NCBI RefSeq assembly: GCF_004010195.1
Contig: NC_057746.1
Coordinates: forward strand, 10,519,457-10,583,456
Reading direction: 5' to 3'
DNA: 64,000 bases
From: Chiloscyllium plagiosum
Taxonomy: Eukaryota
Part shown: piece by piece, positions 13,677 to 41,334 of the stretch
Layout of the letters: every line of letters starts with the position of its first letter
How positions within the stretch are numbered: position 1 is the first letter of the stretch
The notes under the pieces: generated by a model
What the model saw: the letters and a program-made list of their open reading frames with translations, nothing else
Databases searched by the model: none
What the model was told of the DNA's origin: nothing
Translations under genes and position numbers: made by a program

Positions 13677-13806
13677 GTGCCTCTGTTCCACTTTTCATAC
13701 AGTTGTGAACAAAAACAAGAGGACAATTTTAAAGAAGTTGTATTCAGATGCAGTTTATGTTGACTTTTCAATTAAAAGGTATGTGGAAAGAATTGCAGCA
13801 TATTAT
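13677..13806 (+). pseudogene. Possible decayed MHC class II alpha alpha-1 exon (5' half)
   Basis: Acceptor ttttttctattccag at 13662-13676. The phase-1 frame reads ..PLFIQL*TKTRGQF* (stops at 13706 and 13730). After a frameshift it reads SDAVYVDFSIKRYVERIAAY, which aligns without gaps to the recalled shark class II alpha-1 segment DEIFYMDFNLKKEVARIPEF. Same strand as, and upstream of, the alpha-2 exon. Confidence 0.45.
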
Positions 13807-13849
13807 GTACGTATTTTGGCCTTACCTCAGCAGTATCTTCAGCTGAAGG

Positions 13850-14590
13850 ATAGAGGAGCTGAAACAGAGATAGGATGGGGCTGGGATAGGGATGACAGAG
13901 ACTGTCAGAGAGTGAGATAGCATGTGGAAATGATTTGAGAGAGCAAAAGAGGAGTGACATGAAAGGAGAGAGACTTAGAGGTGTCAGAAGCAGGGGTAAA
14001 AGACAGGTGGAGGTGAAGAAAGTTATTGGATTATTAGAGAGTTATTAGAAAGTTATTAGAGAGAGCAACATAGGGATGAGGAATCAAGGCAAACCTTAGA
14101 GAGTCAGGAGTGAGAGAACGTGTGAATTAGATTTTTGGGGATAGGGGTATAAGAAAAATAAATGGTGAGTGGTTGGGTTGAGATGGAGGGGAGGAGTAAT
14201 AGAGGGGCGACGTAAAGACAGGATTGAGAGAGTTGAGCGAGGAATGAAAAGAGAGAGGGAATGCGTATAAGTGGCAGGGTTGGGCAGGACAGACAAGTGT
14301 GGAGAAAGTTGGAGAAGTGAGTGAGGAGAGAGAAACTCCAGTGAGAGTGAAGTGGGAAAAGCGAGAGGGGGATGCAGGAAAAGTGACGAGAGGATTGTAT
14401 GGTGTTGAGTGTAAGGTAAGTCAAAGAAGGCAGTGGTGGAAATAAGAAGCACAAGAGAGACAGAGGTGGTGAGTTAGCTATGGGTGGAGAGAAACGCTCA
14501 GGAGAGACAGGAGAGTACAATTTAGATAGCTAGATAAGCTCAGGTGAGACAGAGGAGGTGACTTAGATGTGGTTGAGAAGGATGGGAGTG
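13850..14590 (+). repeat. Purine-rich (GA) low-complexity tract
   Basis: Strong A/G bias over ~740 bp; explains the S/L/P/F-rich spurious minus-strand ORFs. Confidence 0.8.
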
Positions 14591-15063
14591 AATGCAATCA
14601 TTTTAACAAATCAACTTCTAACAAAAAGGAAAGTTGAATCCTGAATTTAATTATCTGTCCCCCTGAGAGGATAAGTCAAAGTTATAAATGTTCACATTTG
14701 TGAAAATGGAAAACTAACAAGCAGTGACACAATTCCCCTTTCCATATTCCCAGACTCGATTGTTCACTTAAAGGCAAACTCTGAATGAGACTTGATGGCT
14801 AATGGTCTCAGTGTCTTTCTTCATTCTAATCGGATTTATTTTTTGAATGACTAGATTGAATTTTGAAAATGGTCAAAATCTCTCCAGTGCAATCTCTCCT
14901 TAGGTGGCCGTTATTACTACCAGCTGAACCCTATGAAGAGGTTAGAGAGCCATGATGTTGCATCTCTGAGCTCCTCTGTCTATTTTCCACAATTTGGACT
15001 TACAACATAGAAACAGTTTATTCAACCCAACTTTATGATTTGTGTCGATAGACCGCTAACGAC

Positions 15064-17551
15064 TGTGATTGTAGCTCCCTGATTAATATTATGTGAATTC
15101 TGCTAACTGCTGGCATTGACCCTACAGGACTCATCGCTGAAAACTGCTCAGTCTGTAGTTGGATAGACCTTCTTGGGGTGAGCGTCCCACCCTTCTATAG
15201 GTTACTGTGAAAAACACCGAGGAGAGAGTGTGGACCCTGCTCGTGTCTGGTAATGCTGGGACCCCTGTACTGAAAGACCAACTCTGCTTGAGTGGTCTGG
15301 GGACTAGGTCCCACCCATTTCTTAACATGGCCACTTGGTTAAATACATGCGCAGGCTGTCTGCCACACAGACAGCTGGCAGATGCTGAACATGTGGGACT
15401 GCCATCTCAGTGTTTCTGCATCAGCATGCATACTGCCCCACACCCCACCCACACATACCCACTCATGTATCCGCACATATCCACATACACACAAAATCAC
15501 ACGCACAAGCACAGCAGCAGCAGCATTGATAACATTCGGCTTTGACTGAAGCACCAACACATTAACAGGAAAGGTCTGGCAGGGATGCTGCAAGAACGCA
15601 GGGTGGAAACAAGTGGGTTTATGCTCAGATAGCAAGTGATCAGCCCAGAGAACCAGCCCTGAATAATCCAGGAGGTTTCTGTCTCTTTGAGGCCTTGCTG
15701 CAGCTTGTTAGTTCTAGGTGCTGGACCACCAATAGTGGAAGAATAAAATACTTTTGAAGCATAGGGTTGTTTGGTATTGCAGGTAGACTGTGGATAGAAA
15801 GGTTGCAGTTTAAACAAGCAGACATCTTTTTAGCCAGAATCCGTGGGAAAGGCAGATTGCTTGGGAAAAAGCAAACAATCCCAATGTTGCACTAATATTC
15901 ATTTTTTTTTATCAGTTAGACCGATGATTGCAATTTTGTACTCACTGCTTTTCTAAATAATTTTCCATGTTCTATTTTTGACTTGTTGGAGAGAGGAGTG
16001 ATTACCTGTTACGTAAATAGAGATTGGTTTGGGCAAATAAATATTTTGACTGAATCTTGTTTTGGATTGATATCTATATCTTTGATACGTTCAGGTAAAA
16101 CTCAGTTGTCCCATGATATAACCACTGGACAATATAGATTCTGAAGACTAAAATTCTAAGATTAACGTTCTGAAGAATAAAATTAAACTTTCATTGTTAA
16201 CCAACATGTTATCGTTGTGGCCAAAATCACAACATTGTTCAAGACATTATTTCAAAATTCATTGTCAGCATATAATATCTTGTGCATCAGCGTTTTGTGC
16301 TGCTTGACTTTAAGTTGGTTTCGGGTTGTTGCTGTATAAATGTGTTCATCAAAGAAACAGAGGACACAATACCATCTACATCCTAAATGTAAGCCAATTT
16401 GTACAGACTTCCCAACATAATATACAGGGAAATGGCAGGTGAGAAAAACTACTGTGTTAAGGAAGGTAAGCAACAGTTTATGGTCTGTTTAAAAAGTAAT
16501 CTCGAATACAAAGATGTAATCGGTAAACCTTTCAGAAACCCAGGACCTCTTCCTATGACAGCATATCTTTGTTTATGGTCTGCCAATACTCAGGTGGCAT
16601 AATATTACAATCTGTGTATTATAGCAGTTATCAGTATTCCAGCAACTGCATTCTCACTGACTTTGGAAAAACATGGCCCAGAGCCCAATGGACAATGCAT
16701 GAGCTGTGACTCAGTAGGTTTGGGTTGTAATGAGCCAGTCTACCTGTTGTGAGGACTATGTCCTCTACCTGGTGTAGTTACCAAATACCTGCTTAAGCAA
16801 TTACTACAGTGTTTCATTCACATGAACTATATTAAGTAAGAAATTCCATCACTGATCATAGCACAGTGATCCAGTGAACACTATTGTTCCTATCGCGAGA
16901 TTATTGTTTCTGATCTTTGATCCAATCCAAGGCAGTAAGTGTAAAAGCTGTTGACATTCCAAATTATTTAGACTGTCACAAATAAGTTCCAGGCAGCATC
17001 GAGAGATACATTTTATCTACTTGCCTCATTGGATGATAGTGAAGATAGGGATTTCGGTGTAGTTATTGTCAAACAGGTCACTGGTTTGATCAGTTAATTA
17101 ATAACCTAGTTGAAACAGAACCGGGGACTTACCAGCATTCATTTCCTCCAGACGATTGAAAAAAATCCCTTTCCAGTTCAGCGCACAAATAATTGTTGGT
17201 CAGGGAAAACTGATTTCACAGTTGCTGCTGGAAAATTGCCATTGTTAACTGTTCACACCCTCGTTCAGGAAAACTTTAAACACAACATAGACCATGATTT
17301 CATGCAACTCACACCCCTCCCCCACCCCAACCGCATTGTGATCTCATGCATCTTCTAATCAATTCCCCCTTCAATCAGGTCTAATAAGCCACATCATTTC
17401 ACTGAGTGTTTTCAGAACGTGCAAACCCCTCTGCTCAGCGTACTGATTGCAATAGGCAGGCTTCTTGTAATCCTTCATCACCACAGCTGCTATCTTTTTG
17501 CCTTGTGACCCATCCAGAGAATTGCAGGGTCGCTCTCTTACCAAGGCTCCT
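15064..17551 (+). repeat. Segmental duplication, copy A
   Basis: 15064-17256 matches the reverse complement of 20489-21691 plus 23011-24078. 17252-17551 matches 19356-19649 in direct orientation. Confidence 0.9.
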
Positions 17552-18789
17552 ACATGATGTGCTTTCTCACGAACATATTGTGATTGTGATCTTGCTGTCC
17601 ATTCTGGAGAAGCACATGCATAGGAAATTGGTATATGTTGTTGTATGCAGCACAAAGTGTGTCAGCAGGAGGCAGGGATTATGTTTCTGACCCATGCCAG
17701 ATAAACGGCTCATCTTCAAGTTGTAGCAGTTAGTCCCACGATAGCACCCATTTTGCCTGGATTGCTTTTGAAGGTGAGAGTTCAAAGACCCACTCCACTG
17801 CATCCATTCAGGCAGATAGAGTAATCAACTTTCTCAACTCAACTACAACTTTCATTTATGCAGCACATGACAAACTAAATGGAACTGGAAGGAGGGAGAA
17901 GTCCTAACCATGCGTAAAGTCCACAGTCGAAAGGATTTGATAATCGTTGTTCATAAAGAGTTATTGCGAAAAGCAGTAGTCTTTGCTTTGGGGAGAGGAT
18001 ACATCCCAAAGAGGCCAACATCTTGACCAGATGATGAAAGATAAACTGCTAAAGGTCACCCATACTGAAACAAAGAAGAACATAAAATACACATCTACAA
18101 AATGCCATGATGGTGCGTGTGGAATGTATACTCAGTGTAACACCTTCCCCACTCATTTCATTGATTGCAATGTAAGAACTGCATTTGGTTCCAATAAAAA
18201 CCATCAATCTGAAATGTTAATCTCTGTGGAGAGAGAAACAGAGTTAGGAGACCTGCTGAGTATTTCTCGCACTTATTGTTTCATCTCACCTCTTGATTTT
18301 TGCTTATCTGTGAAGGGATTTGCCCACAGTAGCATCTAATTGAATAGTCCACACTACATCACAACCCACTGGGTATTAAATTGGTTTCAGGGATGTGAAC
18401 AGAGCCAGATGAAAGTTTGGTAGACAGCACACTAACTTGTTCATGCCAGTGATTGTGATGTGCAGGCAACAGGACTGTCTGTTGCTGAGTAGCTGCACAC
18501 TTGAGCACAAACCGTTTTGTAAGCCTCATTTTAAAAGTTAGTCTGCACTACATAAAGTCAGACTCCACTGCTTAAAAGCAAGATGCATTCTGGCTGCAGC
18601 CTGGGGCTAAAACTGTTCCAATTACATTTGAAGACTTTTCAAAATGGAATTACTGGCCTCAGGATGTACCCCCCAGATTTTCCAGTTCCACACTGGATAC
18701 ACTGATGTAAGACATGGACCTGGAGGAGAGGGGCTATCTTCCATTAGCAGGTCCTCCAGTCATAATAGCCTTGGCTGAGGAGATTAGGT

Positions 18790-20460
18790 GAATCCAAACA
18801 ACTTCTTTAAGTATATTAAAGGAAAAAGAATAACTAGAGAGAAAAAAAGAACCCTCAAGGACCAATGAGAACATGTTTAGAACTGTAGGAGGTGGGTGAG
18901 GTCCTCAATGAATTCTTCTGTGCTTCCCTTAGGGAAGACATGAAAACTTTGGAACTTGGGGAAGTTAGTGGTGATATCTTGGGAACAGTTCATATCATGG
19001 TTGAGGAGATGTTGGATGCATTCGAACGTATGAAGGTGGATGAATCTCCTCGTACTGACCAGACACATCGAAGAAAACTGCAAGAGGCTAGACAAGAAAT
19101 TGCAGGGACCCTGGCTGATATTTTTGCATCCTCATTAGCTGCGCGTGACGTCCCAGAAGCCTGGAGTCTAGCGAACGCTGTGTACCTTTTCAAGAAGTGT
19201 TGCAAAGAAAAACCGGGAACTATAGACCAGTAAACTTGACCTCTATGGTAGGTAAGTTATTTGAGAAGATTCTGAGAGATAAGATATGCATACATTTGGA
19301 AAGACAGGGTTCGATTAGAAGTAGCTAGCATGCCTTTGTGAGTAGGAGATTATGCTTCACACCCTCGTTCCGGAGAACTTCAAACACAACATAGACCATG
19401 ATTTCCTGCACCCCACCCCACATTGTGATTTCATGCATGTTAATCTTCCAATCAATTTCCCCCTCAATCTTGTGGAATAAGCTCCATAATTTCACTGAGT
19501 TTTCAGAATGTGCAAGCTCCTCTGCTCAGCCTACTGACTGCCATAGGAAAGCCTCTTACTTGCAATCCTCCCACACCACAGCTGCTATCTATTTTGCCTT
19601 GTGTGATCCATCCAAAGCATTGCAGGGTGGCTCCATCATCAAGGCTCCTTATTTATTCTCATCCATATCGTTAATACAAATAACAAACATGATCCCAGCA
19701 CTGATCCCTGAGGCACTCCAATAGTCACAGGTCTCCAGACCCATAAGCATCCTTCCACTATTACCCTCTGCTTCATAACATACAGCCACTTGTGTATCCA
19801 ATTGCCAGCTTCCCCTGGATTCCACGTGATCTAACCTTGCAGAACAGCCTACCATATGGAAACTTATCAATGGCCTTAATCAATCCATGTAAACGATGTC
19901 TACCAGCCTGGTCTCATCAACCTTCCTGGGTACTTCATCTAAGAGCTTTAACAAATTTATACTCCCCCATCGGAGGGAAAAGACACCTATGTTAACTTTA
20001 TCTATACCCCTCATTATTGCATAAATTTCTATGAGGTTGCTTCTCAACCTCACATGCCAGTGAAAAGTTCTCAGCCTTTATTTATAACTCAATTTCCATA
20101 CCTGGGAACATCCTGGTAAAGCTCATTTTGCACGCTCTCAGCTTAATAGTATCCTTTCTGTAACTAAGTGGCCAGAACTGGATACTTCTTGAAAACGGAG
20201 ACAGTGAACACTGTAAATGCTGGAGATCAGAGTCCAGAGTGTGGTGCTGGAAAAGCATAACACGTCAGGCAGCATCTGACCCATTATCATTAGAGTGTAG
20301 CGCCTGGTTCTGGAATCCTGAGACATTGGGAACATCCTTCCTGCATTTACCCTGTCAAGGTTTCTGTTCAACTCTCTGCTTCTTAGCCCATCCAATCTCT
20401 GACGAATATAGAGATCCAGACTCTAATCATATGTCAACCCTGCCATCCTAGGAATCCATC
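18790..20460. mobile_element. CR1 fragments in both orientations around the rearranged duplication
   Basis: 18790-19355 is CR1 ORF2 on + (EVLNEFF..., RPV, GF); 19650-19935 is its continuation on the - strand; further 3'-end fragments run to ~20460. Confidence 0.8.
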
Positions 20461-20488
20461 TAGTAAATCTTTGTACAGACGCTTCATT

Positions 20489-23400
20489 GTGAACAGTTAA
20501 CAAAGGCACTTTTTCCGCAGCAACTGTGAAACCAGTTTTCCACGACCAACAACAATTTGTGCGCTGTACTGGAAAGGGATTTTTTCAATCATCTGAAGGG
20601 AGTGAGTGCTGGGAAGTCCCCGGATCTGTTTCAACCAGGTTATTAAGTAACTGATCAAATCAGTGACCTGTTTGACAATAACTACACCGAAAACCCCTAT
20701 CATTCAATGAGACGAGTGACGAAATGTGTCTCTCGTTGCTGCCTAGAATTTATTTGTGACAGTCTAAATAATTTGGAATGTCAACAGCTTTTACTCTTAC
20801 TGCCTTGGATTGGATCGGATAAAAGATCAGAAACAATAATCTCGTTATAGGAACAGTAGTGTTCACTGAATCACTGTGCTATGATCAGTGAGGGAATTTC
20901 TTACTTAATATAGTTCCTGTGAATGAAACACTGTAGTAATTGCTTAAGCAGGACCACGTCAGGTATTGGAACCCACACCAGGTAGAGGACAGTCCTCACA
21001 ACAGGTACACTGGCTCGTTACATCCCAAACCTACTGAGTCACAGCTCATGCATTGTCCATTGGGCTCTGGGCCATGATTTTCCAAAGTCAGTGAGAACGC
21101 AGTTGCTGGAATACTGTGATTACTGCTATAATACACAGGTTGTAATACTATAGCACTTGAGTATTGGCAGACCATAAGCAATGAAATGGTGTCATAGGCA
21201 AAGAGGTCCTGGGTTTCTAAAAGGTTTACCGATTACATCTTGGGGTTCGAAATTACTATTTAAACAGACCATAAACTTCTGGTTATCTTCCTAAACAAAA
21301 CAATTTTGCTCACTTGCCATTTCCCTCTATATTCCATTGGGTCCTCTGTACAAATTGAGTTGTATTTTAGATGTAGAGTGTAAGGTGTCCTGTCTTTCTT
21401 TAATGAACAAATTTGTACATGAACATCCCAGAAACCAGCTGAAATTTAAGCAGCACAAAACGCTGATGCACGTATGATATTACATGCTCATTGAATTTTG
21501 AAATAATGCCTTGAACAAGGTTGAGATTTTAGCCACAACGATAACATTTTGGTTAACAATGAAAGACTACTTTTACTCTTCAGAACCTTAGTTTTAGAAT
21601 TTTAGTTTCAGAATCTACATTGTCCAGTGGTTATACCATGGGACAACTGAACTTTACCTGAAAACGTATCAATGATATGGAATATGTCAATTGTGCAAGG
21701 CGCCAGGGTACATGGGCAATAGCCAAATTTGTAACTGAGTCATGAAATGAACATTGTCGTCGAGCTCAATGTTGGGAGCATCTTGCTGCATTTTTTGTGC
21801 TTTTATTGCTGAGTAGTAAGACGAGTTTCTGATTAGGCAGTGGCAAGTTGCCAATTGACAGATTAGAGCTTGCTAAATGCCTTGTTAATAGCACAAAAAA
21901 AATCAATCACTAAAGTCAGATTCCGTTCCTAACAAACAAGCTAGACATTGAGAAATATTGACATGCAGTTTAATGTGGACAAATGTTTGGTTATCCACTT
22001 TGCTGGCAAGAACAGGAAGGCAGATTACTACCTAAATGGAGTCAAGTTAGGTAAAGGGGCAGTACAAAGAGATCTGGGTGTTCTTGTACACCAGTCAATG
22101 AAGGCAAGCATGCAGGTACAACAAGTAGTGAAGAAAGCTAATAGTATACTGGCCTTCATAACAAGAGGGATTGAGTATAGAAACAAAGAGGTTATTCTGC
22201 ATCTGTACACGGCCCTGGTGAGACCGCACCTGGAATATTGTGTGCAGATCATCTCCAAATTTGAGGAAAGACATTCTGACTATTGATGGTGTGCAGCGCA
22301 GGTTCACGAGGTCAATTCCTGGAATGGCGGGACGATCTTATGTTGAAAGATTGGAGCGACTGGGCTTGTATACCCTTGAGTTTCGAAGACTGAGAGGGGA
22401 TCTGATTGAGACGTATAAGCTTATTAAAGGATTGGACACTCTGGAGGCAGGAAACATGTTTCCGCTGATGGGTGACTCCCAAACCAGATGACACGGCTTA
22501 AAAATAAGGGGTAGGCCATTTAGGACAGAGATGAGGAGAAACTTCTTCACCCAGAGTGAGGTGGATGTGTAGACCGGTCTGCCCCAGAAGGCAGTGGAGG
22601 CTCAGTCTCTGGATTCATTTAAGAAAGAGTTGGATAGAGCTCTCAAGGGTAGTGGAGTCAAGGGTTATGGAGATAAGGCAGGAACAGGATACTGATTGAG
22701 GATGATCAGCCATGATGATAATGAATGGTGGTGCAGGCTCGAAGGGCATAATGGCCTACTCCTGCACCTATTGTCTAAAAACCTGGTACCTTCATCTCAT
22801 TGCTGCCAGTGAAGAGCCTCCGTGCTGTTCAGCATCAAACATATCTCAGGGCAGCATTCCTCAGCATCAGCCATGTGCACATCAGAAATAGCCTCAGCCA
22901 CAGACACTGGCATCTGGTACTTGCCAACCACTCAAAACCATCGTGGCACCTCTGATCCAATGGCAGGCCAAATAAGAAACACATTTTGCATTGCTGGTAT
23001 TGAAGTCTTTTATCAATCCTAAACAAGATTCAGACAAATTATTTATTTGCCCAAACCAAGCTCTATTTTTCCTGCATGCAGGGACAGAGTACCTAGTCAC
23101 ATAACAGGTAACAACAACTCTCTCCAACAATTTAAAAATATGACATATACTTGAAAAATTATTCAGAAAAGCAGTGAGCACAACATTGCAATAATCGGTC
23201 CAACTGAAAAATGTTAGTACAACATTGGGACTGTTTACTTTTTCCCAAGGATTCTGGCTAAAAATATGTCCGCTTGTTTAAAATGCAGGTTCCAATACCT
23301 GGCGTGGTCTGCTTAAGCAATTACTGCAGTGTTTCATTCGCATGAGCTATTTTTAGTAAGAACTTCCCTCACTAATTTGTCCACTGGCCACCAGCAATAC

Positions 23401-24078
23401 CAAACTATCATATGCTTCAAAAGTATTTTATTCTTCCACTCTGCACCGACCACTGACAAGCTGCAGTGAGGCCACAGAAAAACAGCCAGGTCCTGGATTT
23501 TTCAGGGCTGGTTCTCAGGGCTGATCACTTGCTCTATGAGCACTAACCCACTTGTTTCCACCTTGTATTTCTACAACATCCCTGCCCTGCCAGACCTTTC
23601 CTATTAATGTGTTGGTGCTTCAGTCAGTGCAGAATGTTATCAATGATGCTGCTGCTGCTGTGTGTGTGTGTGAGAGAGTGTATGTGCGCGCTCGGGGGTG
23701 GGATATGGGGCGGTATGCATGCTGATGTAAACACACAGATGTCATTCCTACACTTTCATCTTCTGCCAGCTGCCTGTGTGGCAGACAGCCTGCACATGTA
23801 TTTAACCAAGTGGCCATGTTAGGAGTTGGGTGGGAGCTAGTCCCCAAACAACTCAAGTAGTGTGGGGATATCAGTACAGGGGTCCCAGCATTACCAGACA
23901 CGGGCAGGGTCCACACTCACTCCACGTTTTTTTTCACTGTCACCTATAGAAGGCTGGGGCCCTCACCCCTAGAAGGTCTTTCCACCTACAGACCAAGCAG
24001 TGTTCAGCGTTGAGTCCTGTAGGATCAGGGACTGCGTTCAGCAGAATTCACATTGTCAATGAGGGAGCTACAAGCACA
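20489..24078 (-). repeat. Segmental duplication, copy B (inverted), with a 1.3-kb insertion at 21692-23010
   Basis: For example 20489 gtgaacagttaacaaaggca is the reverse complement of 17237-17256, and the paired ORFs 15207-15545(+) and 23620-23916(-) share NMATWLNTCAGCLPHRQLA. Confidence 0.9.
21960..22780 (+). mobile_element. CR1 LINE 3' end (5'-truncated, young)
   Basis: MQFNVDKC..., LYTALVRPHLEYCVQ, RRLRGDLIETYKLIKG, and a 3'UTR ending ggcctactcctgcacctattgtcta; closely similar to the 750-1300 copy. Confidence 0.93.
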
Positions 24079-24780
24079 ATGGGTCGGCGTCTGCTCAGTC
24101 ATGTCTCGGGGCTGCATGTCAAAGTCAGTCAGAAGTCGAGCTGGATCGAGTAATGAGTGTCTGTCCATTGATCATTAAGGCGAGTGCAAGGTGGCCCAGT
24201 AAGGGCAAAGGGGAGTGGGAAAATCAAGGCTGGAGTGGGGAAGGTCCTGTTAAAGTGGGGGCATTTGTGGAAGTGGGAAAATGGGTGGGAGAGGGTGGGA
24301 GAGCAAGGAGCATGTGAAGCTATAAGAGGCATGGAGGGGTTATTTGTAGCGAACACTATGGTGACCTCCACAAGGGGAGCTTGGAGAAATAGCTTGGGCA
24401 ACATTATGGTGTAAAGGTGGCGTTGGGGGCAGGGAAACTGCAGGCAAGTAAAGTTCAATGTGGTCAGTCTCCAAGGGAGAAAGGATTGATGGGAGTGGGG
24501 GTAGAGGGATATCGGTCGTCAGAGTGATGTGAGAAAATAGAAGACATGGAGGCTCTGGGAATGTATCTAGGGACCAGGAGGAGCTCACTGCCCACATTAA
24601 GCTGCATTTCTTGACACTACTTGCCTTTCTTAGTGTGAAAAGAGGCTGAACAGTGGCATGGACAATGCCCAGGTGGAATGTCGTCAGTGCGAAAGTGCAG
24701 ACTCCAGATTTGCTGGAGGCTGGGATGTTGAAGCGTCAATTAACACAAAACGTGGGATTGAAAGTAGAAAGTGACGATTT

Positions 24781-28445: not shown

Positions 28446-28699
28446 GGAAGAATTGTCCCCTGCTTCAGGGACTTGCTGAATTTTAGGATTTATTCGGAGT
28501 CAAATTGAAACAAGTTTGAGTAATTAATATCTTTCACTAATTCTGGTAATTGGACAGGCGAAAGAGGTATATTTATGTTTAGTGATGCATTGTTTGCTGC
28601 TTTAACGCATCCTCTATTAATCCAAGCTGATGGGAAAACATATTGAACACAACCCATACATTCTAAACCTGCTTAGAACAAAATAATTATCATACAACA

Positions 28700-30816: not shown

Positions 30817-32065
30817 GTCAGTCGTGAATATATTGTGTAAGAGCTGAATTCATCCTCGTGTCTAATAAACTGTGTGTATTACCGAAACTCCCCTGCGTTT
30901 TCTTAAAAGGTCTCTTTTTTTTAACCAAAAGAGTAGTAGTAGAATCCCAAGCAATAAGAAATAATTCGTAATTATTTAGGCTGTTTACTGTATTTTACAC
31001 CCAGTCCAGATTCCAACAGAAAACTCACAACAATGTAATTAAGTCAAAGATTGGTCTTCACTGAATGAGAAAAACAAAGATCATCGTATAATCTTCAGCA
31101 ACATACTTTCAGTCAGCTAAATTTATCCAGTCTTGATGATGCAAAAAATAGATTTAAAACAAAACCACGCAAACCAAAATCATACCAAATGCAATATCTT
31201 TCCATTTACATTTTGAGATTTACTTGTCATTGTACTGTATGTTTTACACACTCTGACTTCTGTAGTTTCGATTATTTTCACTGGTGATTATGTTCAGCAA
31301 GATTTAAATCTAGGGTGATTGGGAAAACAGAGCTCAAGATTTACCTCATGCCTCGCCTTGTTTCTGAAAAACTGAATTTCACACCAAAATTTGTGATAAA
31401 CTTTCAATGTAAAATAGCAATTTGAAGATTCTTTGGAAATGTTCAAAATGCATATAATCTATTTTGCAAGGTAATTCCCGTATTAAATTATGAATTTAAA
31501 CGCTTCTTTTTCTCCAATGTCTCTGTTCATTGTCTGTCCCTGTTTTCTTTCACTCTTCATTGCTTAATTTGTCTTTAATTTAATTTGCCACTGTTTCTTC
31601 TCTTTCTTTCTATAAGCACTGAGCTTGGAGCCTCTGAAGAATTTGGCCATGGATTGCAATTGTTCTTATGCTCCTTATTTTCCTTCTCAGCCAAATTCTG
31701 AGTACTCTCATAAGGTAACAGGTGATTGGTTAGTTAGTATTTTTCTCCTTTAACTTCTAGAAACTCAAAACTGATTAATAATTGTAAAGCTTTATTATAA
31801 GTAGTAAGCTAATACTCGCAAAATAAATATTAGTCGTGACAGTAGCATTTATAATTAGGAACAAGGAAGATATTAACTAATTAGCATCTCCTAGCAGATG
31901 ATGTGTTGAGACGTTACGAGGTGGGAGCTTGTCCAATTAGTGTTTGCAGCTAGAAAACGTTGGACTTCGAGTTAATAAGCTGCAGTCAAGTTACAGAGAA
32001 CGTGAACCATCATAGAAGGAGAAAGTTACCTGGAGACTTTAATAAAGAAAGCAGTCACACCTTGT

Positions 32066-32440
32066 TTTTATTCATTCAAGGGACATAGGACCATGTGAGT
32101 GAGACGAGCAATTGTCGCCCATCTGTTATTATCTTTGAATTGGCTTGCTTGGCCATTTAAGAGGGGAATTAAGTGTTGATGACTTTGCCATGTGTCTGAA
32201 TTCGTATGTAGTCACAGGACAGAGCAGGTAAAAACAGCAGATTTCCTTCCTTAACGGATGTTAGTGAATCAGGTGGGTTTTTACAAAAATCTACATCACA
32301 ATCATTACTGAGATTAGCTTTTAATTTCTGATTTTTAAACTAAATTCAAATTCTATTAGTAATTTCCTTTATTTTAAGCCGTGTCCCTGGACTGTTAGAC
32401 TCGGTTTCTGGATTATGAGTCCACTGACATTGCCACTACA
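32066..32440 (-). mobile_element. tRNA-derived shark SINE (non-HE1 family), degraded
   Basis: Similar to 46030-46265; its 3' tail resembles the end of the LINE at 46580-48075. Confidence 0.65.
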
Positions 32441-32519
32441 GCAGAAGTGTCAGCAGAATTTGACTGAGTGTGTGGCAGGTAAGTTGTTTGACAGGGTTGC
32501 AGATCTTCAGTCCCTGCTG

Positions 32520-33260
32520 TTATAGAGTCTTGGAATTATAGAGATGTGCAGCATGGAAACAGACCCTTTGGTCCAACTTGTCCATGCCAACCAGGTTTCC
32601 TAAAGTGAACTAGTTACATTGTCTGCATTTGGTCTATATCCTTCTAAACCTTTCGTATTTGCATATCTGTCCAAATGTCTTTTAAATGTTGTAATTGTAC
32701 TTGCCTCTATCATTTCCTCTGGCAGCTTCTTCCACATATACATCACACTCTGATTGAAAAACAACTTCTCTCTGTTTCCGTGTAGATATTTTTTGTCTCA
32801 CCTGAACCTATCCCAATTGTACTGGACTCCCCTACCCCAAGAAACAAACCTTGTCTTTACCTTACCATTGCCGCTCATGATTTTTTAAACTTCTATAACA
32901 TCAGACCTCAGCCTCCGATGCTCCAGACAAAGTTGTCCGAGCCAATCTCGACTTTCCTGATAACTCAAACCCTCCAGTCCCAGTAACATGTTTGTCAATC
33001 TTTCTGCACCCTTTCCAATTTAATTACATAATTCCTATAGCAGGAAAACCAGAATGGTATGGTGTACTCCAAATGTAACTTTACCAATATATTGTACAGC
33101 AGTAACGTGATGTCTCAGCTCCTGTACTTGATGAACTGACTGAACGGAAGCGTGCCAAACAAATTGATACATGCCTCATTTACTTTCTTTACCGGAGCCT
33201 CAGTATCTCTAGTGATCCAGTGCACTCCCATCTACATGTGACACCATTTTCAAGGAAAAA
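32520..33260 (-). mobile_element. CR1 3' fragment
   Basis: 3'UTR gcagcatggaaacagaccctttggtccaac and degraded RT C-terminus. Confidence 0.8.
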
Positions 33261-33284
33261 TGTACCGTCAACTCAAGGTTGTCA

Positions 33285-36200
33285 TAGACTCATAGAGATG
33301 CACAGCACGGAAACAGACCCTTTGGTCGGCATGGACGGGTTGGACCGGATATCCTAACCCAATCTCGTCCAACTTGACAGGACCCGGCCCATGTCCCTCC
33401 AAGCCCCTTCTATTCATATACCCATCCAAATGACTCGTAAATGTTGCAATTGTACCAGCCTCCACCACATCCTCTGGCAGCTCATTCCAAACACGTACCA
33501 CACTCTGCGTGAAAAAGTTGCCCTACACGTCTCTTTCATATCATTCCCCTCTCACCCTAAACTTATGCCCTCCCCGACTCCCCCACCCCAGGAAAAAGAC
33601 TTTGTCTATTTATCGTATTCATGCCGTTCATAATTTTGAAAACCTCCATAAGGTCACCCCTCAGTCTCTAACGCTCCAGGGAAAACAGCCCCAGCCTGTT
33701 CAGCCTCTCCCTATAGCTTAAATCCTCCAAAACTGGCAAAATGATTGTAAATCTTTTCTGAACCCTATCAAGTTTCACAACATCTTTCCAATAGGAAGGA
33801 GAACAGAATTGCACGCAATATTCCAACAGTGGCCTAACCAATGTCCTGTACAGCTGCAGCATGATCTCCCAACTCCTACTCACTACTCTGACCAATAAAG
33901 GAAAGCATAACAAACGCCGCCTTCACTATCATATCTCCCTCCGACTCCACGTTAAAGGAGCTATGAACCTGCACTCCAAGGTCTCTTTGTTCAGCAACAC
34001 TCCCTCGGACCTGACCATTAAGTGTAGAAGTCCTGCTAAGGTTTGCTTTCCCAAAATGCAGCACCTCGCATTTATCTGATAAAACTCAATCTGCCACTTC
34101 TCAGGCAATTGGCCCATCTGGCCCAGATGCTGTTGTAATCTGAGGTAATCCTCCTTGCTGTCCACTACACCTGCAATTTTGGTGTCATCTGCAAACTTAC
34201 TAACTGTACCTCTTATGCTCCCATCCAAATCATGTATGTAAATGACAAAAAGTAGAGGACCCAGCACCGATCCTTGTGTCATCCCACTTTTCACAGGCCT
34301 CCAGTCTTAAAAATAACCCACCACCACCACCCTCTCTCTTTTACATTTTCAGCGAGTTCTGTTTCCAAATGGCTAGTTCTCCCTGTATTCCATGAGATCT
34401 AACTTTGCTCATGAGACTCCCATGGGGAACCTTGTCGAATGCCTTATTGAAGTCCATATAGATCACATCTACTGCTCTTTCCTCATCAATCTTCTTTGTT
34501 ACTTATTCAAAAAACTCAATCAAGTGTGTGAGACATGATGTCTCACGCACAAAGCCATGTTGACTATCCCTAACCAGTCCTTGCCTTTCCAAATACATGT
34601 GCATCCTGTCCCTCAAGATTTCCTCCAACATCTTGCCCATCATTGATGTCAGGCTCACCGGTCTATAGTTCCCTGGCTTGTCTTTACCTCCCTTCTTAGT
34701 AGTGGCACCACGATTGCCAGCCTCCATGCTCTGGCATCTCACCTGTGACTATCGTTGATACAACTATCTCAGCAAGCGGCTCAGCAAACACTTCTCTAGC
34801 TTCCCACAGAGTTCCCGGATACACCTGATCAGGTCCTGGGTATTTATCCACCTTTAACCGTTTCGAGACATCCAGCACTTGCTCCAATGTAATCTGGACA
34901 TTTTGCAAGATGTCACCATTTATTTCCCTACAGTCCATATCTTCCATATCCTTTTCCACAGTAAATACTGATGAAAAATATTCATTTAGTATCTCCCCCA
35001 TTTTCTGTGGCTCCACAACAAGGCCGCCTTGCTGATCTTTGAGGGGCCCTATTCTCTCCCTAGTTACGCTTTTGTCCTTAATATGTTTGTAAAAACCGTT
35101 TGGATTCTCCTTAATTCTATTTGTCAAAGCTATCTCATGTCCCCTTTTTGCCCTCCTGATTTCCCTCTTAAGTATACTCCTACTTCATTTGTACTCTTCT
35201 AAGGATTCACTCGATCTATCCTGTCTATACCTGACATATGCTTCCTTCTTTTTCTTAACTAAACCCTCAATTTCTTTCGTCTTTCAGCATTCCATATTCC
35301 TACCAACCTTCTCTTTCAACCTGACAGGAATATGCTATCACTGGATTCTTGTTATCTCGTTTCTGAAGGCTTCCTATTTTCCAGCCGTCCTTTTACCTGC
35401 AAACATCTGCCTCCAATCAGCTTTTGAAAGTTCTTGCCAAATACAGTCAAAATTGGCCTTCCTCCAATTTTGAACTTCAACTTTTTTATCTGTCCTATTC
35501 TTTTCCATCACTATTTTAAAATGAATTGAATTATGGTGGCTGGCCCCAAAGAGCTCCCCCACTGACACCTAAGTCACCTGCCGTGCCTTATTTCCCAAGA
35601 GTAGCTCAAGTTTTGCACATTCACGAGTAGGTACATCACATACTGAATCAGAAAATTGTCTTGTACACACTTAAGAAATTCCTCTCCATCTAAACTTTTA
35701 ACACTATGGCAGTCCCAGTCGATGTTTGGAAAGCTAAAATCCCCTACTATAACTACCCTATTACTCTTACAGATGGCTGAGATCTCCTTGCAAATGTGTT
35801 TCTCAAATTCACTCTGACTACTAGGGGGTCTATAATACAATCCCAATGAGGTTATCATCCCTTTCTTATTTCTCAGTTCCACCCAAATAACTTGCCTGGA
35901 TATATTTCCGGGAATATCATCCCTCAGCACAGCTGGAATGCTATCCCTTATCAAAAATGCCACACCCCCTCCTCTCTTGCCTCCCTTTCTATCCTTCCTG
36001 TATCATTTGTATCATGGAACATTAAAGTTGCCAGTCCTGCCCATCCCTAAGCCATGTTTCTGTAATTGCTGTCATATCCCAGTCCCATGTTCCTTACCAT
36101 GACCTGAGTTCATCTGCCTTCCCTGTTAGGCCGCTTGCAATGAAATAAATGCAGTTTAATTTATTAGTCATACCTTGTCCCTGACTGCCCTGATATTTGC

Positions 36201-36905
36201 TTGGTTTGTTTGAGTTCTGTTCTCGACTGTACCAGTCTCAGATTTATCTCTTTACTCACTATCTCCATGTACCGTCCCCCCCCCCCCCCCCAACTTACCA
36301 GTTTAAATCCTCCCAAGCCGTTTTAGCAAATTTCCCTGCCAGTATATTAGACCCTTCCAATATAGGAGCAATCCGTCCTTCTTCTACAGGTCACTTCTAC
36401 CCCAGAAGAGATTCCAATGATCCAAAAATCCTTCGCCCATACACCAGCTCCTCAGCCATGTATTTATTTGCTCTGTCCTCCTATTCCTGCCCTCACTTGC
36501 TCGTCGCACTGGGAGTAATCCAGGTATTATTATTCTCGAGGACTTCCTTTTTAAATTTGTGCCTAATTCTCTGTCATCTTCCTTCTGAATCTTAACGTTT
36601 TCCCTTCCTATATCGTTGGTTCCAATGTGGATAATGACACCTTGCTGGCCCCTCTCCCCCGTGAGAACATTCCGCATCCTCCTGAGACATCTTTGATACT
36701 GGCACCTGCGAAACAACACACCATTCTGCTTTTTCTCTGCTGGCCACAGAAATGTCTGTCTCTACCTCGGACTACAGAATACCCGAACACAATTGATCTC
36801 TTAGAAGCCGCGTAGCCCTCGTTGCATTCGAGCCAGTCTCAATACCAGAAAGTTGGCTATTCGTGCTGCGTTCCCCTGAGAATCCATCCCCCTATATTTT
36901 CCAAC
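33285..36905 (-). mobile_element. Near full-length CR1 LINE with SGNH-esterase ORF1, APE endonuclease and RT (frameshifted)
   Basis: ORF1: FGYSVVRG...MVCCFAGASIKDVS and VIIHIGTNDIG. EN: WVELRNKKG...YYRPP...VIVGDFSFPNIDW. RT: QGSVLGPLLFVIYI...SKFADDTK. Confidence 0.93.
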
Positions 36906-36914
36906 TGTCCAGCT

Positions 36915-37230
36915 GTGCGAAGGTCAGTGTCCTGTTTGTGTGCAGACCGGAGGTGTTCCGCATTGCGGCCATCCAGTCGGCATTTGGTCTCCCCAATATA
37001 GAGTAGGCCGCATTGGGTGCAGCGAATACAATACACAAGATTGGAGAAGGAACATTTGAAACGCTGCTTCACCGGGAAAGACTGTTTCGGCCCTTGAATG
37101 GTGAGCAGGGAGGAGGGGATGGGGCAAGTCTTGCACCTTCTGCTGTTACATCGGAAGGCGGTGGTGGTGATGTAGGTTGTGGAATGGACTGATATATCCT
37201 GGAGGGAATGATCCCTGCGAAATCTGCAAG
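36915..37230 (-). mobile_element. Penelope-like GIY-YIG endonuclease fragment (Neptune type, with upstream Cys-rich motif)
   Basis: CNSRRCKTCP...FKCSFSNLVYCIRCTQCGLLYIGETKCRLDGRNAEHLRS within ORF 36857-37417. Confidence 0.88.
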
Positions 37231-37239
37231 CATTAGTGA

Positions 37240-38850
37240 CAGTTACTCTTGTAGCCACCACGTTCACAGCAAAAGACGTGAGACCAGACCCAGCGTAGAA
37301 TACCATCCAACCAGACGATGAAAAGGCTTCACCATTCTGATTGTAACAGATGATGTTAATCACCTGGAAGTTAACCAGCATAATTTGCACAAAGTAAACT
37401 GGCAAACACACATTCAACCAAAGACTGACATCAATTGAACCTAGTGAAGGGCATTTACCAGAACCATCAAAACACTATCTTACTACTGAAAGCCGCTACA
37501 TTACCTGCACACAATGGATTTCCCATTTCTTTCACTGCCGCATTAACAATGTGATGTAGCTACTATAATTAAACATGGAAACCTCAAATACTTTACGTGA
37601 TGGACACAAATCGACCAGAACTACAGCTCTCAAAACAGCTCATAGATCACAAAGCTACCCACAGTAGCAGAAAAGACCGAGAATATTCTCATTGACTCAG
37701 TCCAGGATTTTCAACAATTGTACAATAGTTTTAATGTCATAGGAGCTTTCGATAGTGACACTATATTACAGCTCAGAGCATAAAAATCCATCAACTGACC
37801 CTCCCAGATAGTGTGGTGTTCACATACAGGAAAAGCTTCGATATAAGTGCAAGGACTCGAATACAATGCCACCAACCATCATGTGCATCCCCACACAAAT
37901 ACATTTGATTCTGTGAGCAGATTACCAAACCCGGACATGGACGTCAGCATTCCACTTGATATAAACATTGACAGCATGAATATTCAGGTTTAAGATCTTC
38001 TCAAAGTCAATCTATATTGCATTTTGTTCAACAATATCATTTCAAAACGGCTAACAACCTATAACTGAAGGCACAGAGTTATCGTTATCAATGTTATCAT
38101 TGAAAGGTGGCCTAACATTGTTAGAGATTCCAAATACTCTCATATAATTCTGGACTTTACAGAGATGAGCTCGGTATCTTAAGGGGCATAATTTTCAAAG
38201 ATAAACAACTACTCATGCCCAAAACTCTCTGTCAGGGAATATTGTTACAACTGCAAAAGGACTTTATTGGCCTACAGCAGATGTCATGCCAGTCATGTGA
38301 TTAAGTTTATCAGCTAGTAATTAACAGTGGCACCAAAAAAGTAGGTGAGGTATGTCAGTGCCACCAGCCACAGCAACGTAGAGAACATTTACATCCATAT
38401 GAGATTCCAGCAGTGCTTTACTCCAAAACGGGCATTGATCTAGTTGTCATGATTGGAGATGGCTTCATCTTTGTCGCTGATTTATTTCTCCAAATGTCCA
38501 ATTATCAGACAGGTAAGACATTGGAGGTGCAGTGGCAAATGATTCTCGGGAGATATTTAATGGCTCAGATATTCCAGGGACTCGACAGTTGTACCTGCAG
38601 TGCAAACTGGCGTTCTGCATCAGGAAACCTCAGCACAGGGAAATTGGCCTGAAATTTGACGTTTCTGATAGGCAATTCCACTGCAACTCGAACTGTCCAA
38701 AAACATACATAAAAACTGAGTTTGGAGCGTCCTGGCTCATTTAAAATTATAGCCACCGAGGAAAGGTTAGAGGATTAAAAACTACCCTAATTCCAATGTA
38801 AATAGTAACCTGAATCCCAGATTCACCAGTGACTCCCATCTACACCGCTC
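37240..38850 (+). mobile_element. Gypsy LTR-retrotransposon pol relic (RNase H to integrase)
   Basis: Translates to DELGILRGIIFKDKQLLMPKTLCQGILLQL (~38164-38254) and EVCQCHQPQQRREHLHPYEIPAVLYSKTGIDL...FVADLF (integrase Zn-binding and core start); many stops. Confidence 0.7.
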
Positions 38851-40019
38851 GTCAGTATTTAATACTACTTAGGGACTCAGGTACAGAAATCATGAAAAGG
38901 TTCTGATCAAGTCCAGAAAATAATCAAAATCCTCAGGGATTGCAAGGAAAAGAATACAAGGAGCGAGAAGTTATGTTTCAGTAATGCAAAGGACTGGTTC
39001 GACCAAAACAGGCCTTTGTATTTCTGAAACATAAGTTCTGGACATATTCCCACAGTAAGGAGTCCTTGGAGGAGGTGCAGTGTAATTAGTCAGACTGAGC
39101 CCCAGAGTTAAAGAGTTATGTTATGAGGAGAGATTAAGCAACAGAGGTCTATATTTCCTGGATTTCAGATTTTCCCTAATCTCTCAGTTCACTCCTTTAC
39201 TGATTATTTAACATTAATGCTGCCTCAGAGGTCATGTATGCCTCACCAAGGGGAATAATCCGCAATGAATATCCTTCATAATTTCAAAATATTAAATTCA
39301 AATCTAATTTCAGCCCACCCTGTTCTAAAAGGAACAATTTTAGTGGCCTTGGGAGGAGAGTTACTGAAATGAAACCATATGTAACTTCAATTACATTGGA
39401 ACAGAAGGTAAAGAGACACACAATATTGAAGAGTTTTGATAGACTGGAGCGGTAGGAACTGCTTCCACTGGTAAGAGGATGGATAAGAAGAGGGCACAGA
39501 TAGAAGATAATTAGTGAAAGAACCAGGGAGCATCTGGAAATTTATTCATTGCTTCTTGTTGTGAACAATTGTTGGGAGCGAAGGAGGTTGAATACTGTTT
39601 GAAGAAAAAATAATGGTCTGGATTTACCAAGGAAAGCCAATCCCATTCAGGTCGCCACTCCAGCCTGTTTTATGAAGGAACGGAGCTCCACATTTCTGAG
39701 AGGAGATTTTAATCAGGGTTCCGTCAGAACTGCTAACCTGCATCCCCTCTTCACAGCATTCAGCTGCCAGATTCTGTTATGTAAATGTGTGATCTAAGCA
39801 CGGAAGGGAAGTGTAATGTTAGTTGCTGGGTGGGTAAATGCTATATGGTAGGAGGCCCAGGCTTCCATGTATGTCGGATGTTGGCTGGGTTAGGGTGGTG
39901 AAGGGTGCCACATGGGTGAAGGTGCTAGGGGCCCAGGTAAATGCTGCAGTGTTAGGGTAGGTTGGGTTGGGAGGAAGAGATTTGGTACAGTGGAAAGGGT
40001 GGTTGTCACAGATGGTTTC

Positions 40020-40625
40020 TCTCATGCACATAAAATCAAACACATGCCTACACATAAAGATAGACACACAAATACACACACACGCATACACAAACTAATA
40101 TGCACGCAGAGGTATGTAAACATCAGTACAAACACATATGTACATACATATGTACATAAATGGACATTCAAGCACACGTACACACTCAAATACTCATAGG
40201 TATTTACAAACATACATATGTGCATACAAATACTAGTAGATGCACACAGACATGTACATATATACAAAGACTTGTACTTGCACACAAACATATGCACACA
40301 CAGAGAAACGTATGCACATGGGCACACACACAGATGACACACACATAGACACAAACACATGTACACATGCACATATCCATTCACACCCGTACACACATAC
40401 ACATAGATACATATACACAAACACACATACATATGTACATGCATATACACACACGTGTACACACAGATCACAGACACAACACACATGCACACACAGAACA
40501 CACATACAGAACACATACACATGCAAAGAACAGACACCAACACACTCTGCCACCTTCCCCCCAGACCTGCCCCCCCACCCCTCCACCCCCCCACACACAC
40601 ACACAGAGAACGCATGTACACACAT
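40020..40625 (+). repeat. Degenerate (CA/TA)n low-complexity microsatellite
   Basis: Source of the H/T-rich and C/V-rich spurious ORFs at 39819-40769. Confidence 0.92.
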
Positions 40626-41161
40626 TGCCTTGTGGAAAATTCAAACATTCAACAATTCCTTCAGAGTTTGTTACAATGGAATTTCTACAGGGTCCCATGC
40701 ACAACTCCCTGCTTCACTGGAATAACACTGTCTAGTCAGTGGGAGTTGCAGGCCAGCGTTGGACTATGAATAAGAAGTATTGAGACTAACTGGGTAACTC
40801 TTTCAAAGATCCAGCAATGGGATACTGAGCGAAACAGCTGTCATTCCAGTAAAGCCTTTGTGAGCACCTCTGCTCATAACTAGTTTCCCATTCCCGGTAC
40901 TTCCTGATGAGTCTATGTTACTGTTTCTGTAGGGTAAATTCTTTCCTTTACAAATAGCATTGCCATCAGTAATTCCTAGACTTTGGAACTTTGTGTACGT
41001 GATTAACACAATTAAGCATGATGCATATTTATGGCCAGTGGGCACTTTACTTGGTGATGCACCGCAGCATGGGTAAGACCCTCCAATAGTCTTTCCACAC
41101 TGTTGACATCTCAAGTTTCACTATGAGACACTCATTCTTTCCCTGCCTCTCTCTAATGTAG

Positions 41162-41334
41162 AACCTGAAGTACCAGAGGAACAGTCTGGTCCTTGGACAG
41201 TGATCTGTATTGTGGGAATCATCCTGGGAATTATCAGTGCTGTTGTAGCGGTCATTTTACTGATTAAAGAGAGGAAACGGCTGCAACCCCTGGCATCTAG
41301 GGATAAGTACAGGGTGCAGGGTCTGTGTTTATAA
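41162..41334 (+). CDS. MHC class II alpha chain, connecting peptide/transmembrane/cytoplasmic exon
   Basis: Pyrimidine tract plus tag acceptor ending at 41161. The phase-1 join to alpha-2 gives W-EPEVPEEQSGPWTVICIVGIILGIISAVVAVILLIKERKRLQPLASRDKYRVQGLCL*. It contains the class II alpha TM pattern C-x2-G-x3-G followed by the basic stop-transfer KERKR. Confidence 0.9.

Follow-up and report, generated by a model that had tools for sequence, protein, structure and literature searches.

A DBA-lineage MHC class II alpha duplicate reduced to its 3' half, most likely a pseudogene, in Chiloscyllium plagiosum

Exons and duplicated segments at the locus

The window (the whole 64,000-nt stretch of Chiloscyllium plagiosum DNA analysed here) contains two real exons of a DBA-lineage MHC class II alpha gene, encoding the alpha-2 domain and the transmembrane (TM) region. 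This pair, a DBA-type alpha-2 exon and a class II TM exon, bears out the gene identity proposed in the first-pass annotation. Both exons lie in a duplicate of about 40 kb. Introns included, it shares approximately 83% identity with a classical gene found at another place on this chromosome. The duplication is colinear with this parent gene, which is located at 1.35 Mb on contig C37. The locus comprises the following features:

8324..26589, plus strand: copy of the parent's far-5' flank, sharing 76-86% identity with G000:C37:1,444,166-1,473,649
13677..13806, plus strand: alleged alpha-1 remnant; AT-rich, non-coding, with borderline protein-level likeness to alpha-1
26599..27640, plus strand: continued duplicated flank, matching unplaced contig C97855:22,369-21,371
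27657..27870, no strand assigned: fragment A of a dispersed repeat; among 40 scored candidates the best copies are 77-87% identical
27749..27848, plus strand: first exon of RefSeq model XP_043533774.1 (P0001, 184 aa), inside repeat A, with a weak hydrophobic core and no RNA reads
27876..28448, no strand assigned: dispersed repeat B, best 40 of 8,793 candidates at most 80% identical over the span
28447..47047, plus strand: copy of the parent's 3' half; its blocks mostly share 76-86% identity with C37:1,355,119-1,331,877 (minus strand)
30535..30816, plus strand: alpha-2 (Ig C1) exon, open, DBA lineage, with several changes at conserved residues (e.g. Y>C, Y>H, V>A)
33281..36904, minus strand: CR1-like LINE in intron 3, absent from the matching place in the parent
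41162..41334, plus strand: connecting-peptide/TM/cytoplasmic exon, open, with a frameshifted tail and G>A at the TM glycine
41290..41291, plus strand: point at which 7 nt present in both paralogues are deleted; the conserved stop, TAG at 41298-41300, is out of frame
41303..41304, plus strand: GT>AT change in a donor consensus, ATAAGT here against GTAAGT after the stop in both paralogues

The alpha-2 exon is in phase 1, has AG and GT at its ends and contains no stop. It matches the Pfam C1-set domain with E 4.6e-23, finds class II alpha chains among its top PDB matches, and retains both cysteines and the tryptophan. It is thus open, in phase and flanked by splice sites, as first described, and corresponds to the DBA-type C1 exon of a classical class II alpha gene. 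The TM exon had been described in the same terms, which holds for the AG preceding its start and for its frame, open until TAA at 41332-41334, but not for its 3' part. The 7-nt deletion causes the conserved AQQHGI-stop tail to be read through, the original stop is lost, and the altered GT belongs to what is probably the donor to a 3'-UTR exon. The changed TM glycine is present in 22 of 22 relatives. With the deletion and the change at this invariant residue, the conserved TM region and cytoplasmic tail of a classical gene are not retained.

Substitutions on the window branch number 14 non-synonymous to 7 synonymous, or 13:7 when codon 46 is corrected with the outgroup, giving a pN/pS of 0.6-0.7 that does not differ from neutrality (P=0.45). 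The test is of low power: neutrality is not rejected for the classical paralogues either (13:9, P=0.14), and the window branch does not differ from them (Fisher P=0.75). At well-conserved columns the window carries 9 private residues, against 0-4 in 21 other proteins; the epaulette orthologue has 5, and a nurse-shark DAA-type protein 12.

The missing 5' half

The segment of the window from 8.3 to 27.6 kb corresponds to DNA that lies upstream of the promoter in the parent. It is followed by the two repeat fragments (27657-28448) and then by intron 2, the last 2.1 kb of which opens the duplicated 3' half that extends into the 3' flank. The parent contig stops at a gap exactly at window 26589; C97855 begins at 26599, its homology to the window stops at 27640, the left edge of the missing segment, and it then enters a 36-bp minisatellite of about 20 kb. 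The right edge lies where repeat B ends and intron-2 homology starts. On C101167 the same minisatellite recurs in the same orientation upstream of the parent-type leader, at a distance of 8.2 kb, and in the C. punctatum model P0004 it also comes ahead of the leader; the window and the 200 kb upstream of it contain 0 copies. We infer the order of C97855, C101167 and C93255. Beyond its array, C101167 holds 6.7 kb of its own sequence that does not occur in the window.

Profile and DNA searches found neither an alpha-1 exon nor a leader in the window or the 200 kb upstream (264 kb together; the upstream part holds 5,902 N, of which 4,636 directly precede base 1), and real alpha-1 exons give no blastn match in the same 264 kb. 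Because introns and flanks have diverged from the parent by 10-14%, a decayed alpha-1 of the gene's own would be expected at about 87% identity. The assembly as a whole holds three alpha-2 exons (at least 83% identity), two alpha-1 exons and two promoter/leader regions, the second of the latter detected at 71% identity. The peptide-binding exon of a classical gene, and its promoter and leader exon, were not found at this locus. That the gene has no working alpha-1, as first suggested, is borne out by the empty 264 kb and by the lack of a third alpha-1 in the assembly, and the same results speak against the suggestion that the real alpha-1 lies more than 30 kb upstream. A crude pattern for X-Y boxes matched plausibly in the parent region, at 1,360,105, 1,458,211 and 1,474,361, but gave nothing plausible in window 1-30 kb. 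From 200 kb upstream to 100 kb downstream, gaps aside, neither a class II beta exon nor a further C1 exon was found, and with it no linked beta gene. Protein searches of low power for short third-lineage forms returned only P0032 or nothing.

Alternative readings

The loss of the 5' half might be an artefact of assembly, the real locus keeping its leader and alpha-1 and the assembler having dropped both along with the minisatellite. The assembly is of poor quality at this very place: pieces of both classical genes are distributed among contigs that are unplaced or wrongly oriented, both alpha-1 exons adjoin gaps, and RefSeq carries a 107-aa model of leader and alpha-1 only (P0032). The same exons of the parent gene ended up on unplaced contigs C101167 and C93255 because of tandem arrays, the Hemiscyllium protein P0003 retains alpha-1, and no piece bridging the left junction at 27640 occurs among the contig pieces listed. 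The right junction at 28447, however, is bridged by contigs of two samples (DNA runs X1 and X3), and the junction region is free of N. For the two repeats there, the best of 40 candidates scored in each case reach no more than 80-87% likeness, which is too different for collapse. With no third leader or alpha-1 anywhere in the assembly, we regard such an artefact as quite unlikely; even a whole gene would have the tail frameshift and no spliced transcript seen.

Another possibility concerns the stretch 13677-13806, which had been read as an alpha-1 remnant. The two stops and the subsequent frame change to DAVYVDFSIKRYVERI are present, but the likeness to alpha-1 is borderline only. The stretch scores 5.3 bits in an HMM search (E 2), below the 8.8 bits of a chance match on a LINE reverse-transcriptase motif, and its frameshift-aware score is 41.4, where half an alpha-1 with 13% decay would be expected to reach 91 (median). 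It is the top plus-strand profile peak in 264 kb; its score is reached by 2 of 140 shuffles (0/20, 0/40, 0/40 and 2/40) and exceeded by 3 of 48 other real 30-kb tiles. In DNA comparisons with real alpha-1 exons, 62-95% of 130-nt window tiles do at least as well as this stretch, and its GC content is 32%, against 51-52% in those exons. A paralogous copy at C37:1,450,037-1,450,442, 83% identical, differs by four frame-breaking indels and scores 25.5, which equals background. Pfam, PDB and Atlas searches with the open frame returned nothing class II-like, and a search for a decayed alpha-2, TM or leader partnering the stretch gave only background peaks; the best of these (51.5, 168 kb upstream) could not be read by eye as an Ig exon. 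That the stretch is the alpha-1 of this very gene, in decay beside a preserved alpha-2 and TM, is scarcely credible, for all that it combines the best plus-strand peak with a good acceptor at 13675-76 and a YVDF..K..V.RI motif. It cannot be exon 2 of this gene, since its DNA is upstream of the promoter in the parent locus, where its copy sits in the pre-promoter flank while a parent-type alpha-1 exists separately; DNA similarity to alpha-1 is absent where about 87% is expected, and the donor-like GT at 13807 is lost in the copy. It is somewhat easier to envisage, although still unlikely, an alpha-1 exon fossilised much earlier in some other gene of class II or W type and already dead before the duplication, which would be compatible with the pseudogene reading preferred below. 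The rarity of the score among shuffles points this way, as do the acceptor retained in both copies and the comparison with single shark alpha-1s, in which the stretch ranks above the best other plus-strand site in 14 of 21 cases, ties in 3 and falls below in 4. The background score of the copy and the empty database and partner searches point the other way, and any mosaic of both copies falls outside the top 20 of 172 peaks.

A groove-less membrane chain consisting of the Ig domain only had also been proposed. In an expressed form of this kind, the repeat-derived exon 27749-27848 would supply a promoter and a makeshift signal peptide and splice in phase 1 to alpha-2, giving an Ig-TM protein of 184 aa. 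The RefSeq model is in frame and has an ATG, a brief stretch of leucines and, at 27849, a GT donor in phase 1, and alpha-2 keeps its cysteines and tryptophan; a class II beta gene without exon 2 is conserved in two anoles, according to the available part of PMC9679377. No spliced window-type transcript was found in four RNA-type runs (X14, X18, X19 and X21), which are of low depth, with about 2% of X21 read; assembled contigs drop rare forms, and the source tissues are not specified. In all, the analysis covered 7 of 24 listed runs. The spliced alpha-2/TM contigs of X14, X18 and X19 carry 17-19 and 8 non-window letters and lose the match at 41285. In raw run X21 the paralogue letter is seen in 27/27 reads at 41249, 23/23 at 41209, 12/12 at 30708 and 10/10 at 30640. 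Every spliced alpha-2/TM sequence in these runs is of paralogue type; at 30586, the paralogue letter is seen in 7/12 X21 reads, the other 5 being ambiguous. X14 also yielded one unspliced 180-nt piece of window type (30406-30585; 4 differences, versus 23 for the paralogue), which can be counted in favour of the chain and may represent DNA or nascent RNA. The proposed first exon sits within a dispersed repeat, X21 depth is 0 over 27519-27952, no 27848-30535 joint occurs among the splice joints listed, and the hydrophobic core of the exon reaches 2.4, against 3.4-3.6 in true leaders. The epaulette model has a different N-terminus, also not a leader, and retains alpha-1, so the architecture is not conserved in the orthologue; the substitutions at conserved residues argue in the same direction. 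With no leader in 264 kb to splice straight to alpha-2, only two leaders genome-wide and a RefSeq first exon that is repeat-borne and unread, we consider an expressed groove-less chain very improbable. Equally speculative is its evolutionary form, in which a third class II alpha gene specific to bamboo and epaulette sharks would have been restarted by a repeat-derived promoter and first exon, yielding a membrane-anchored, groove-less, Ig-only chain with a new tail in another tissue and regaining a B2M-like state. If the repeat-driven transcript were genuine, this group would gain its first non-classical class II chain; none is reported in the available parts of PMC8010645 and PMC10751288.

Origin of the locus and comparison with known systems

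We conclude with good confidence that a DBA-lineage MHC class II alpha gene, copied by segmental duplication, is represented in the window by its 3' half. Promoter, leader and alpha-1 exon are absent, the likely cause being a deletion that exceeds 28 kb, and the copy is most likely a pseudogene. It is most likely better read as a dead duplicate of the ordinary kind than as a new groove-less immune protein. As in other unprocessed pseudogenes, introns and flanks are colinear with a functional parent, and disabling lesions are present in the missing 5' half, the frameshift and the donor change. Of the initially suggested pseudogene with uneven decay, the pseudogene stands as the best reading, and the uneven decay gives way to loss of the whole 5' half.

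The duplicate probably arose before the split of Chiloscyllium and Hemiscyllium, since the epaulette shark has an orthologue. Selection on it may then have been relaxed, possibly after early loss of the promoter and leader, as the epaulette model likewise lacks a leader. In the C. plagiosum lineage, a deletion with its ends at or in the two repeat fragments would have removed the minisatellite, promoter, leader and alpha-1, spanning 28 kb as measured directly and probably 50-90 kb. That the alpha-2 reading frame survives would mean no more than that a divergence of 5-7% over 279 nt need not give a stop. Without a promoter and a signal peptide, no surface protein is predicted.

As a pseudogene the locus carries little weight, being another instance of MHC birth and death. 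It suggests that the family of these carpet sharks carries a third, degenerating DBA copy, which might be co-amplified by alpha-2-anchored typing primers. The analysis also corrects RefSeq entry XP_043533774.1, a protein model with a repeat as its first exon, and maps the scatter of both classical genes across the assembly. The literature searched gave no description of the locus; lists of shark class II sequences and of MHC maps accompany PMC8010645 and PMC10751288 and may bear on this.

The locus resembles shark DBA class II alpha genes in its exon phases, in its chromosome, which is that of the classical genes, in the 82-88% identity of alpha-2 and TM to carpet-shark proteins, and in the DBA primer sites, matched by eye with few mismatches (available part of PMC8010645). 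It differs in the absence of promoter, leader and alpha-1, in the frameshifted tail, and in having no nearby beta partner and no spliced transcript seen; in addition, the assembly places it some 9 Mb away from the class II cluster. Its sister in the alpha-2 plus TM tree is Hemiscyllium ocellatum XP_060706684.1 (P0003; support 95/90), with which it has three residues in common that occur in 0 of 22 other relatives. The P0003 model resembles the window in having no recognisable leader, and differs from it in a tail of normal length and in keeping an alpha-1 (PF00993, E 5.8e-14) with 9 private residues, the highest number among 23.

The human HLA-DRB pseudogenes DRB2, DRB6 and DRB8 lack 5' exons, and DRB6 is transcribed from a repeat-derived promoter. 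They are likewise truncated class II duplicates of birth-and-death evolution, but are primate beta genes of independent origin. An Anolis mhc2-beta homologue without exon 2 is similarly a class II duplicate devoid of its peptide-binding exon beside full-length paralogues; it encodes a beta chain, its loss is common to two species about 39 My apart, and its function is untested there (PMC9679377, available part). The window additionally lacks leader and promoter, and its alpha-1 loss is not found in its orthologue. Beta-2-microglobulin and the W-category alpha chains also possess a single C1 Ig domain related to class II alpha-2; the W genes map outside the MHC according to the available part of PMC10751288. 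The window exon, in contrast, shares 85-88% identity with classical IIA alpha-2, has a class II TM exon after it and belongs to a recent duplicate.

Exons and origin of the duplicated locus

The window, at C37:10,519,457-10,583,456, carries a segmental duplicate of a classical MHC class II alpha locus. The translation of its alpha-2 exon is 100% identical to XP_043533774.1, an NCBI model of C. plagiosum comprising 184 aa without a PF00993 domain, and 82-88% identical to class II alpha chains of bamboo, epaulette and whale shark. Compared by eye, the exon agrees with the primer sites that PMC8010645 gives for the DBA lineage. As the first-pass annotation stated, alpha-2 (30535-30816) is open and in phase, with AG and GT ends in phase 1. 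The TM exon, taken there to be intact, is indeed open over 41162-41334, but it is not undamaged. Aligned with its two paralogues, it lacks 7 nt between positions 41290 and 41291, so that the conserved stop is no longer in frame; the sequence after that stop, GTAAGT in the paralogues and by consensus the putative donor to a 3'-UTR exon, is ATAAGT in the window. The exon is therefore open but damaged.

Duplicated segments and related features of the parental region (C37, chromosome contig; C97855 and C101167, unplaced contigs)
8324-26589: duplicated flank, colinear with C37:1,444,166-1,473,649
26599-27640: flank continuation, matching C97855, which begins at window 26599 and continues into ~20 kb of 36-bp minisatellite
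28447-47047: duplicated 3' half, colinear, introns included, with the gene whose alpha-2 lies at C37:1,352,699 (minus)
C97855:38-20,132 and C101167:22,067-35,226: 36-bp minisatellite arrays of 13-20 kb
C37:1,360,105, 1,458,211, 1,474,361 and 1,214,281: X-Y box-like motifs near classical genes (crude pattern)

Across five blocks of intron and flank, window and parent have diverged by 10-14% in substitutions. The parent contig stops at a gap corresponding to window 26589. The minisatellite of C97855 recurs in the same orientation 8.2 kb upstream of the parent-type leader on C101167 (MEAKSYF..., with a Y-box-like GATTGG), and in a C. punctatum gene model it appears in translation as PDPDPV repeats that precede the leader; the parent-type alpha-1 is located on a third unplaced contig, C93255. 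The parent order would thus be flank, minisatellite, promoter/leader, alpha-1, intron 2, alpha-2 and TM.

Several further features were observed in these regions. On C101167 a 69-bp array precedes the parent-type leader by ~1 kb, and the X-Y box-like motifs at 1,360,105 and 1,458,211, found with a crude pattern, sit in parent DNA absent from the window. The window contains an inverted duplication (15064-17257 and 20488-24078, arms 71-87% identical), both arms of which match a single parent-region copy at C37:1,460,078-1,466,788. An open frame in intron 3 (36860-37474, minus), likely a Penelope-type element fragment, resembles a GIY-YIG domain at a Pfam E of 5.7e-4, which misses the cut-off. 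At the start of the window, a coiled-coil open frame of 181 aa (1-543, minus) adjoins a 4,636-N gap and has only weak coiled-coil matches in Pfam; we take it to resemble LINE ORF1.

The missing 5' half

Searches with blastn, HMM and tblastn found neither alpha-1 nor leader in the window or in the 200 kb upstream, a stretch that includes 5,902 N, 4,636 of them directly before the window. This agrees with the lack of an intact alpha-1 noted in the first-pass annotation, which had proposed the tblastn search. Genome-wide, three alpha-2 exons reach at least 83% identity, alongside two alpha-1 exons and two promoter/leader regions; the regions read contain three TM exons. The locus qualifies neither as a classical class II alpha gene nor as a non-classical chain with leader joined to alpha-2; the suggested groove-less chain is very improbable.

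The stretch 13677-13806, earlier read as a decayed alpha-1 remnant, combines a good acceptor with a YVDF..K..V.RI motif, and is the top plus-strand peak of a frameshift-aware profile in 264 kb. A shark alpha-1 HMM gives it 5.3 bits (E 2), short of the 8.8 bits for the reverse-transcriptase motif of a LINE at 34469-34338. Its profile score of 41.4 compares with 294 for real alpha-1 and with a median of 91 (5th percentile 63) for simulated half exons at 13% decay; it was reached in 2 of 140 shuffles, and among 48 further 30-kb tiles of real sequence 3 scored higher. It has no DNA-level likeness to real alpha-1 exons, a GC content of 32% against their 51-52%, and no relevant match in Pfam, PDB or Atlas. 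The sole paralogue (C37:1,450,037; 83% identity, score 25.5) is set apart by four indels that break the frame and does not have the donor-like GT, and even with any mosaic of both copies allowed the stretch is not in the top 20 of 172 peaks. On these grounds the stretch is not exon 2 of this gene; it may be a very old fossil exon. In this LINE (34469-34338, minus), and in other CR1-like copies, the reverse-transcriptase motif VIYMDF imitates the YMDF motif of shark alpha-1 and can mislead searches for that exon.

Relative to the parent order, the window passes from the flank (27640) through two repeat fragments at 27657-27870 and 27876-28448 into sequence that starts 2.1 kb ahead of alpha-2. 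The missing segment measures at least 28 kb (21.4 kb of C97855 and 7 kb of C37), and probably 50-90 kb. The absence could instead reflect misassembly, since assembly around the class II genes is poor and the left junction is bridged by none of the contig pieces listed. The junction, however, is free of N, and the repeats in it share no more than 80-87% identity with the top copy among the 40 scored per search, making collapse unlikely; the right junction is spanned by contigs of DNA runs X1 and X3 (28388/28390-28725), two samples of one study, of which X1, with 0-1 differences, may not be independent of the assembly. We consider an artefact improbable. The best explanation, in which we have high confidence, is a pseudogene, as in the second option of the first-pass annotation, but one with its 5' half deleted rather than unevenly decayed, marked by the jump from flank to intron 2 and the TM frameshift.

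Both classical genes are scattered over C37:1,180,914-1,352,980, C93255, C101167 and C97855. One has its leader (1.195 Mb) and alpha-1 (1.181 Mb) on the minus strand and its alpha-2 (1.289 Mb) and TM (1.325 Mb) on the plus strand, and its RefSeq model is a 107-aa fragment; the leader, alpha-1 and upstream flank of the other lie on three unplaced contigs. The window duplicate offers a guide for re-ordering these contigs.

Selection and transcription

The dN/dS comparison proposed earlier, made by three-way parsimony over the 134 codons of alpha-2 and TM that precede the frameshift, assigns 14 non-synonymous and 7 synonymous changes to the window branch (13:7 with codon 46 polarised by outgroups). 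The pN/pS is 0.6-0.7 and does not differ from neutrality (P=0.45). For the two classical genes combined the count is 13:9 (P=0.14; Fisher P=0.75 against the window branch), and the test therefore has little power. More telling is the count of private residues in columns conserved to 80% or more: 9 in the window protein, among them V>A, Y>C, L>V, G>A and Q>K where 22/22 sequences agree, against 0-4 in 21 other proteins, 5 in the putative orthologue and 12 in a divergent nurse-shark DAA-type chain.

This likely orthologue, the predicted Hemiscyllium ocellatum protein XP_060706684.1, groups with the window in a tree of 16 alpha-2+TM sequences (support 95/90). In its model the alpha-1/alpha-2/TM frame is open, conserved residues of the groove are altered and the N-terminus is not leader-like; its alpha-1 carries the most private residues of 23. 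Judged by this predicted protein, the groove-less form is therefore not conserved. The protein may represent either an earlier-stage pseudogene or a non-classical candidate; a third copy decaying in both genera is the simpler reading.

RNA reads, the mapping of which had also been proposed, do show the 30816-41162 splice, but with paralogue-type letters. Contigs with this splice establish that runs X14, X18 and X19 contain RNA; each differs from the window at 17-19 letters of alpha-2 and at 8 of TM and ceases to match at 41285, so they are paralogue transcripts. Raw single-cell run X21, ~2% read, yielded 15 reads with this splice. At diagnostic sites, paralogue letters were seen in 27/27 (41249), 23/23 (41209, 41212), 12/12 (30708), 11/11 (30694, 30782) and 10/10 (30640) reads, and less uniformly in 10/11 (30785), 5/6 (30571) and 7/12 (30586). 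X14 contained one unspliced window-type piece over an intron/exon edge. These data cap a window transcript only loosely, at about 10% of the class II alpha mRNA of a single sample. The first exon of the RefSeq model (27749-27848) sits in a dispersed repeat, has a hydrophobic core of 2.4 against 3.4-3.6 in true leaders, and is covered by no reads in the ~2% of X21 read.

Comparison with other class II duplicates

No description of the locus was found in the literature searched, although supplements of papers may list it. The MHC genes of C. plagiosum are placed on Chr37 (PMC7677710), and the available text of PMC10751288 counts between one and four classical class II copies in each shark species, with no non-classical class II reported. 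The window locus behaves like other truncated class II duplicates arising under birth-and-death evolution. Human DRB pseudogenes without 5' exons are one such case. Class II genes without exon 2 have been described in anoles (PMC9679377).
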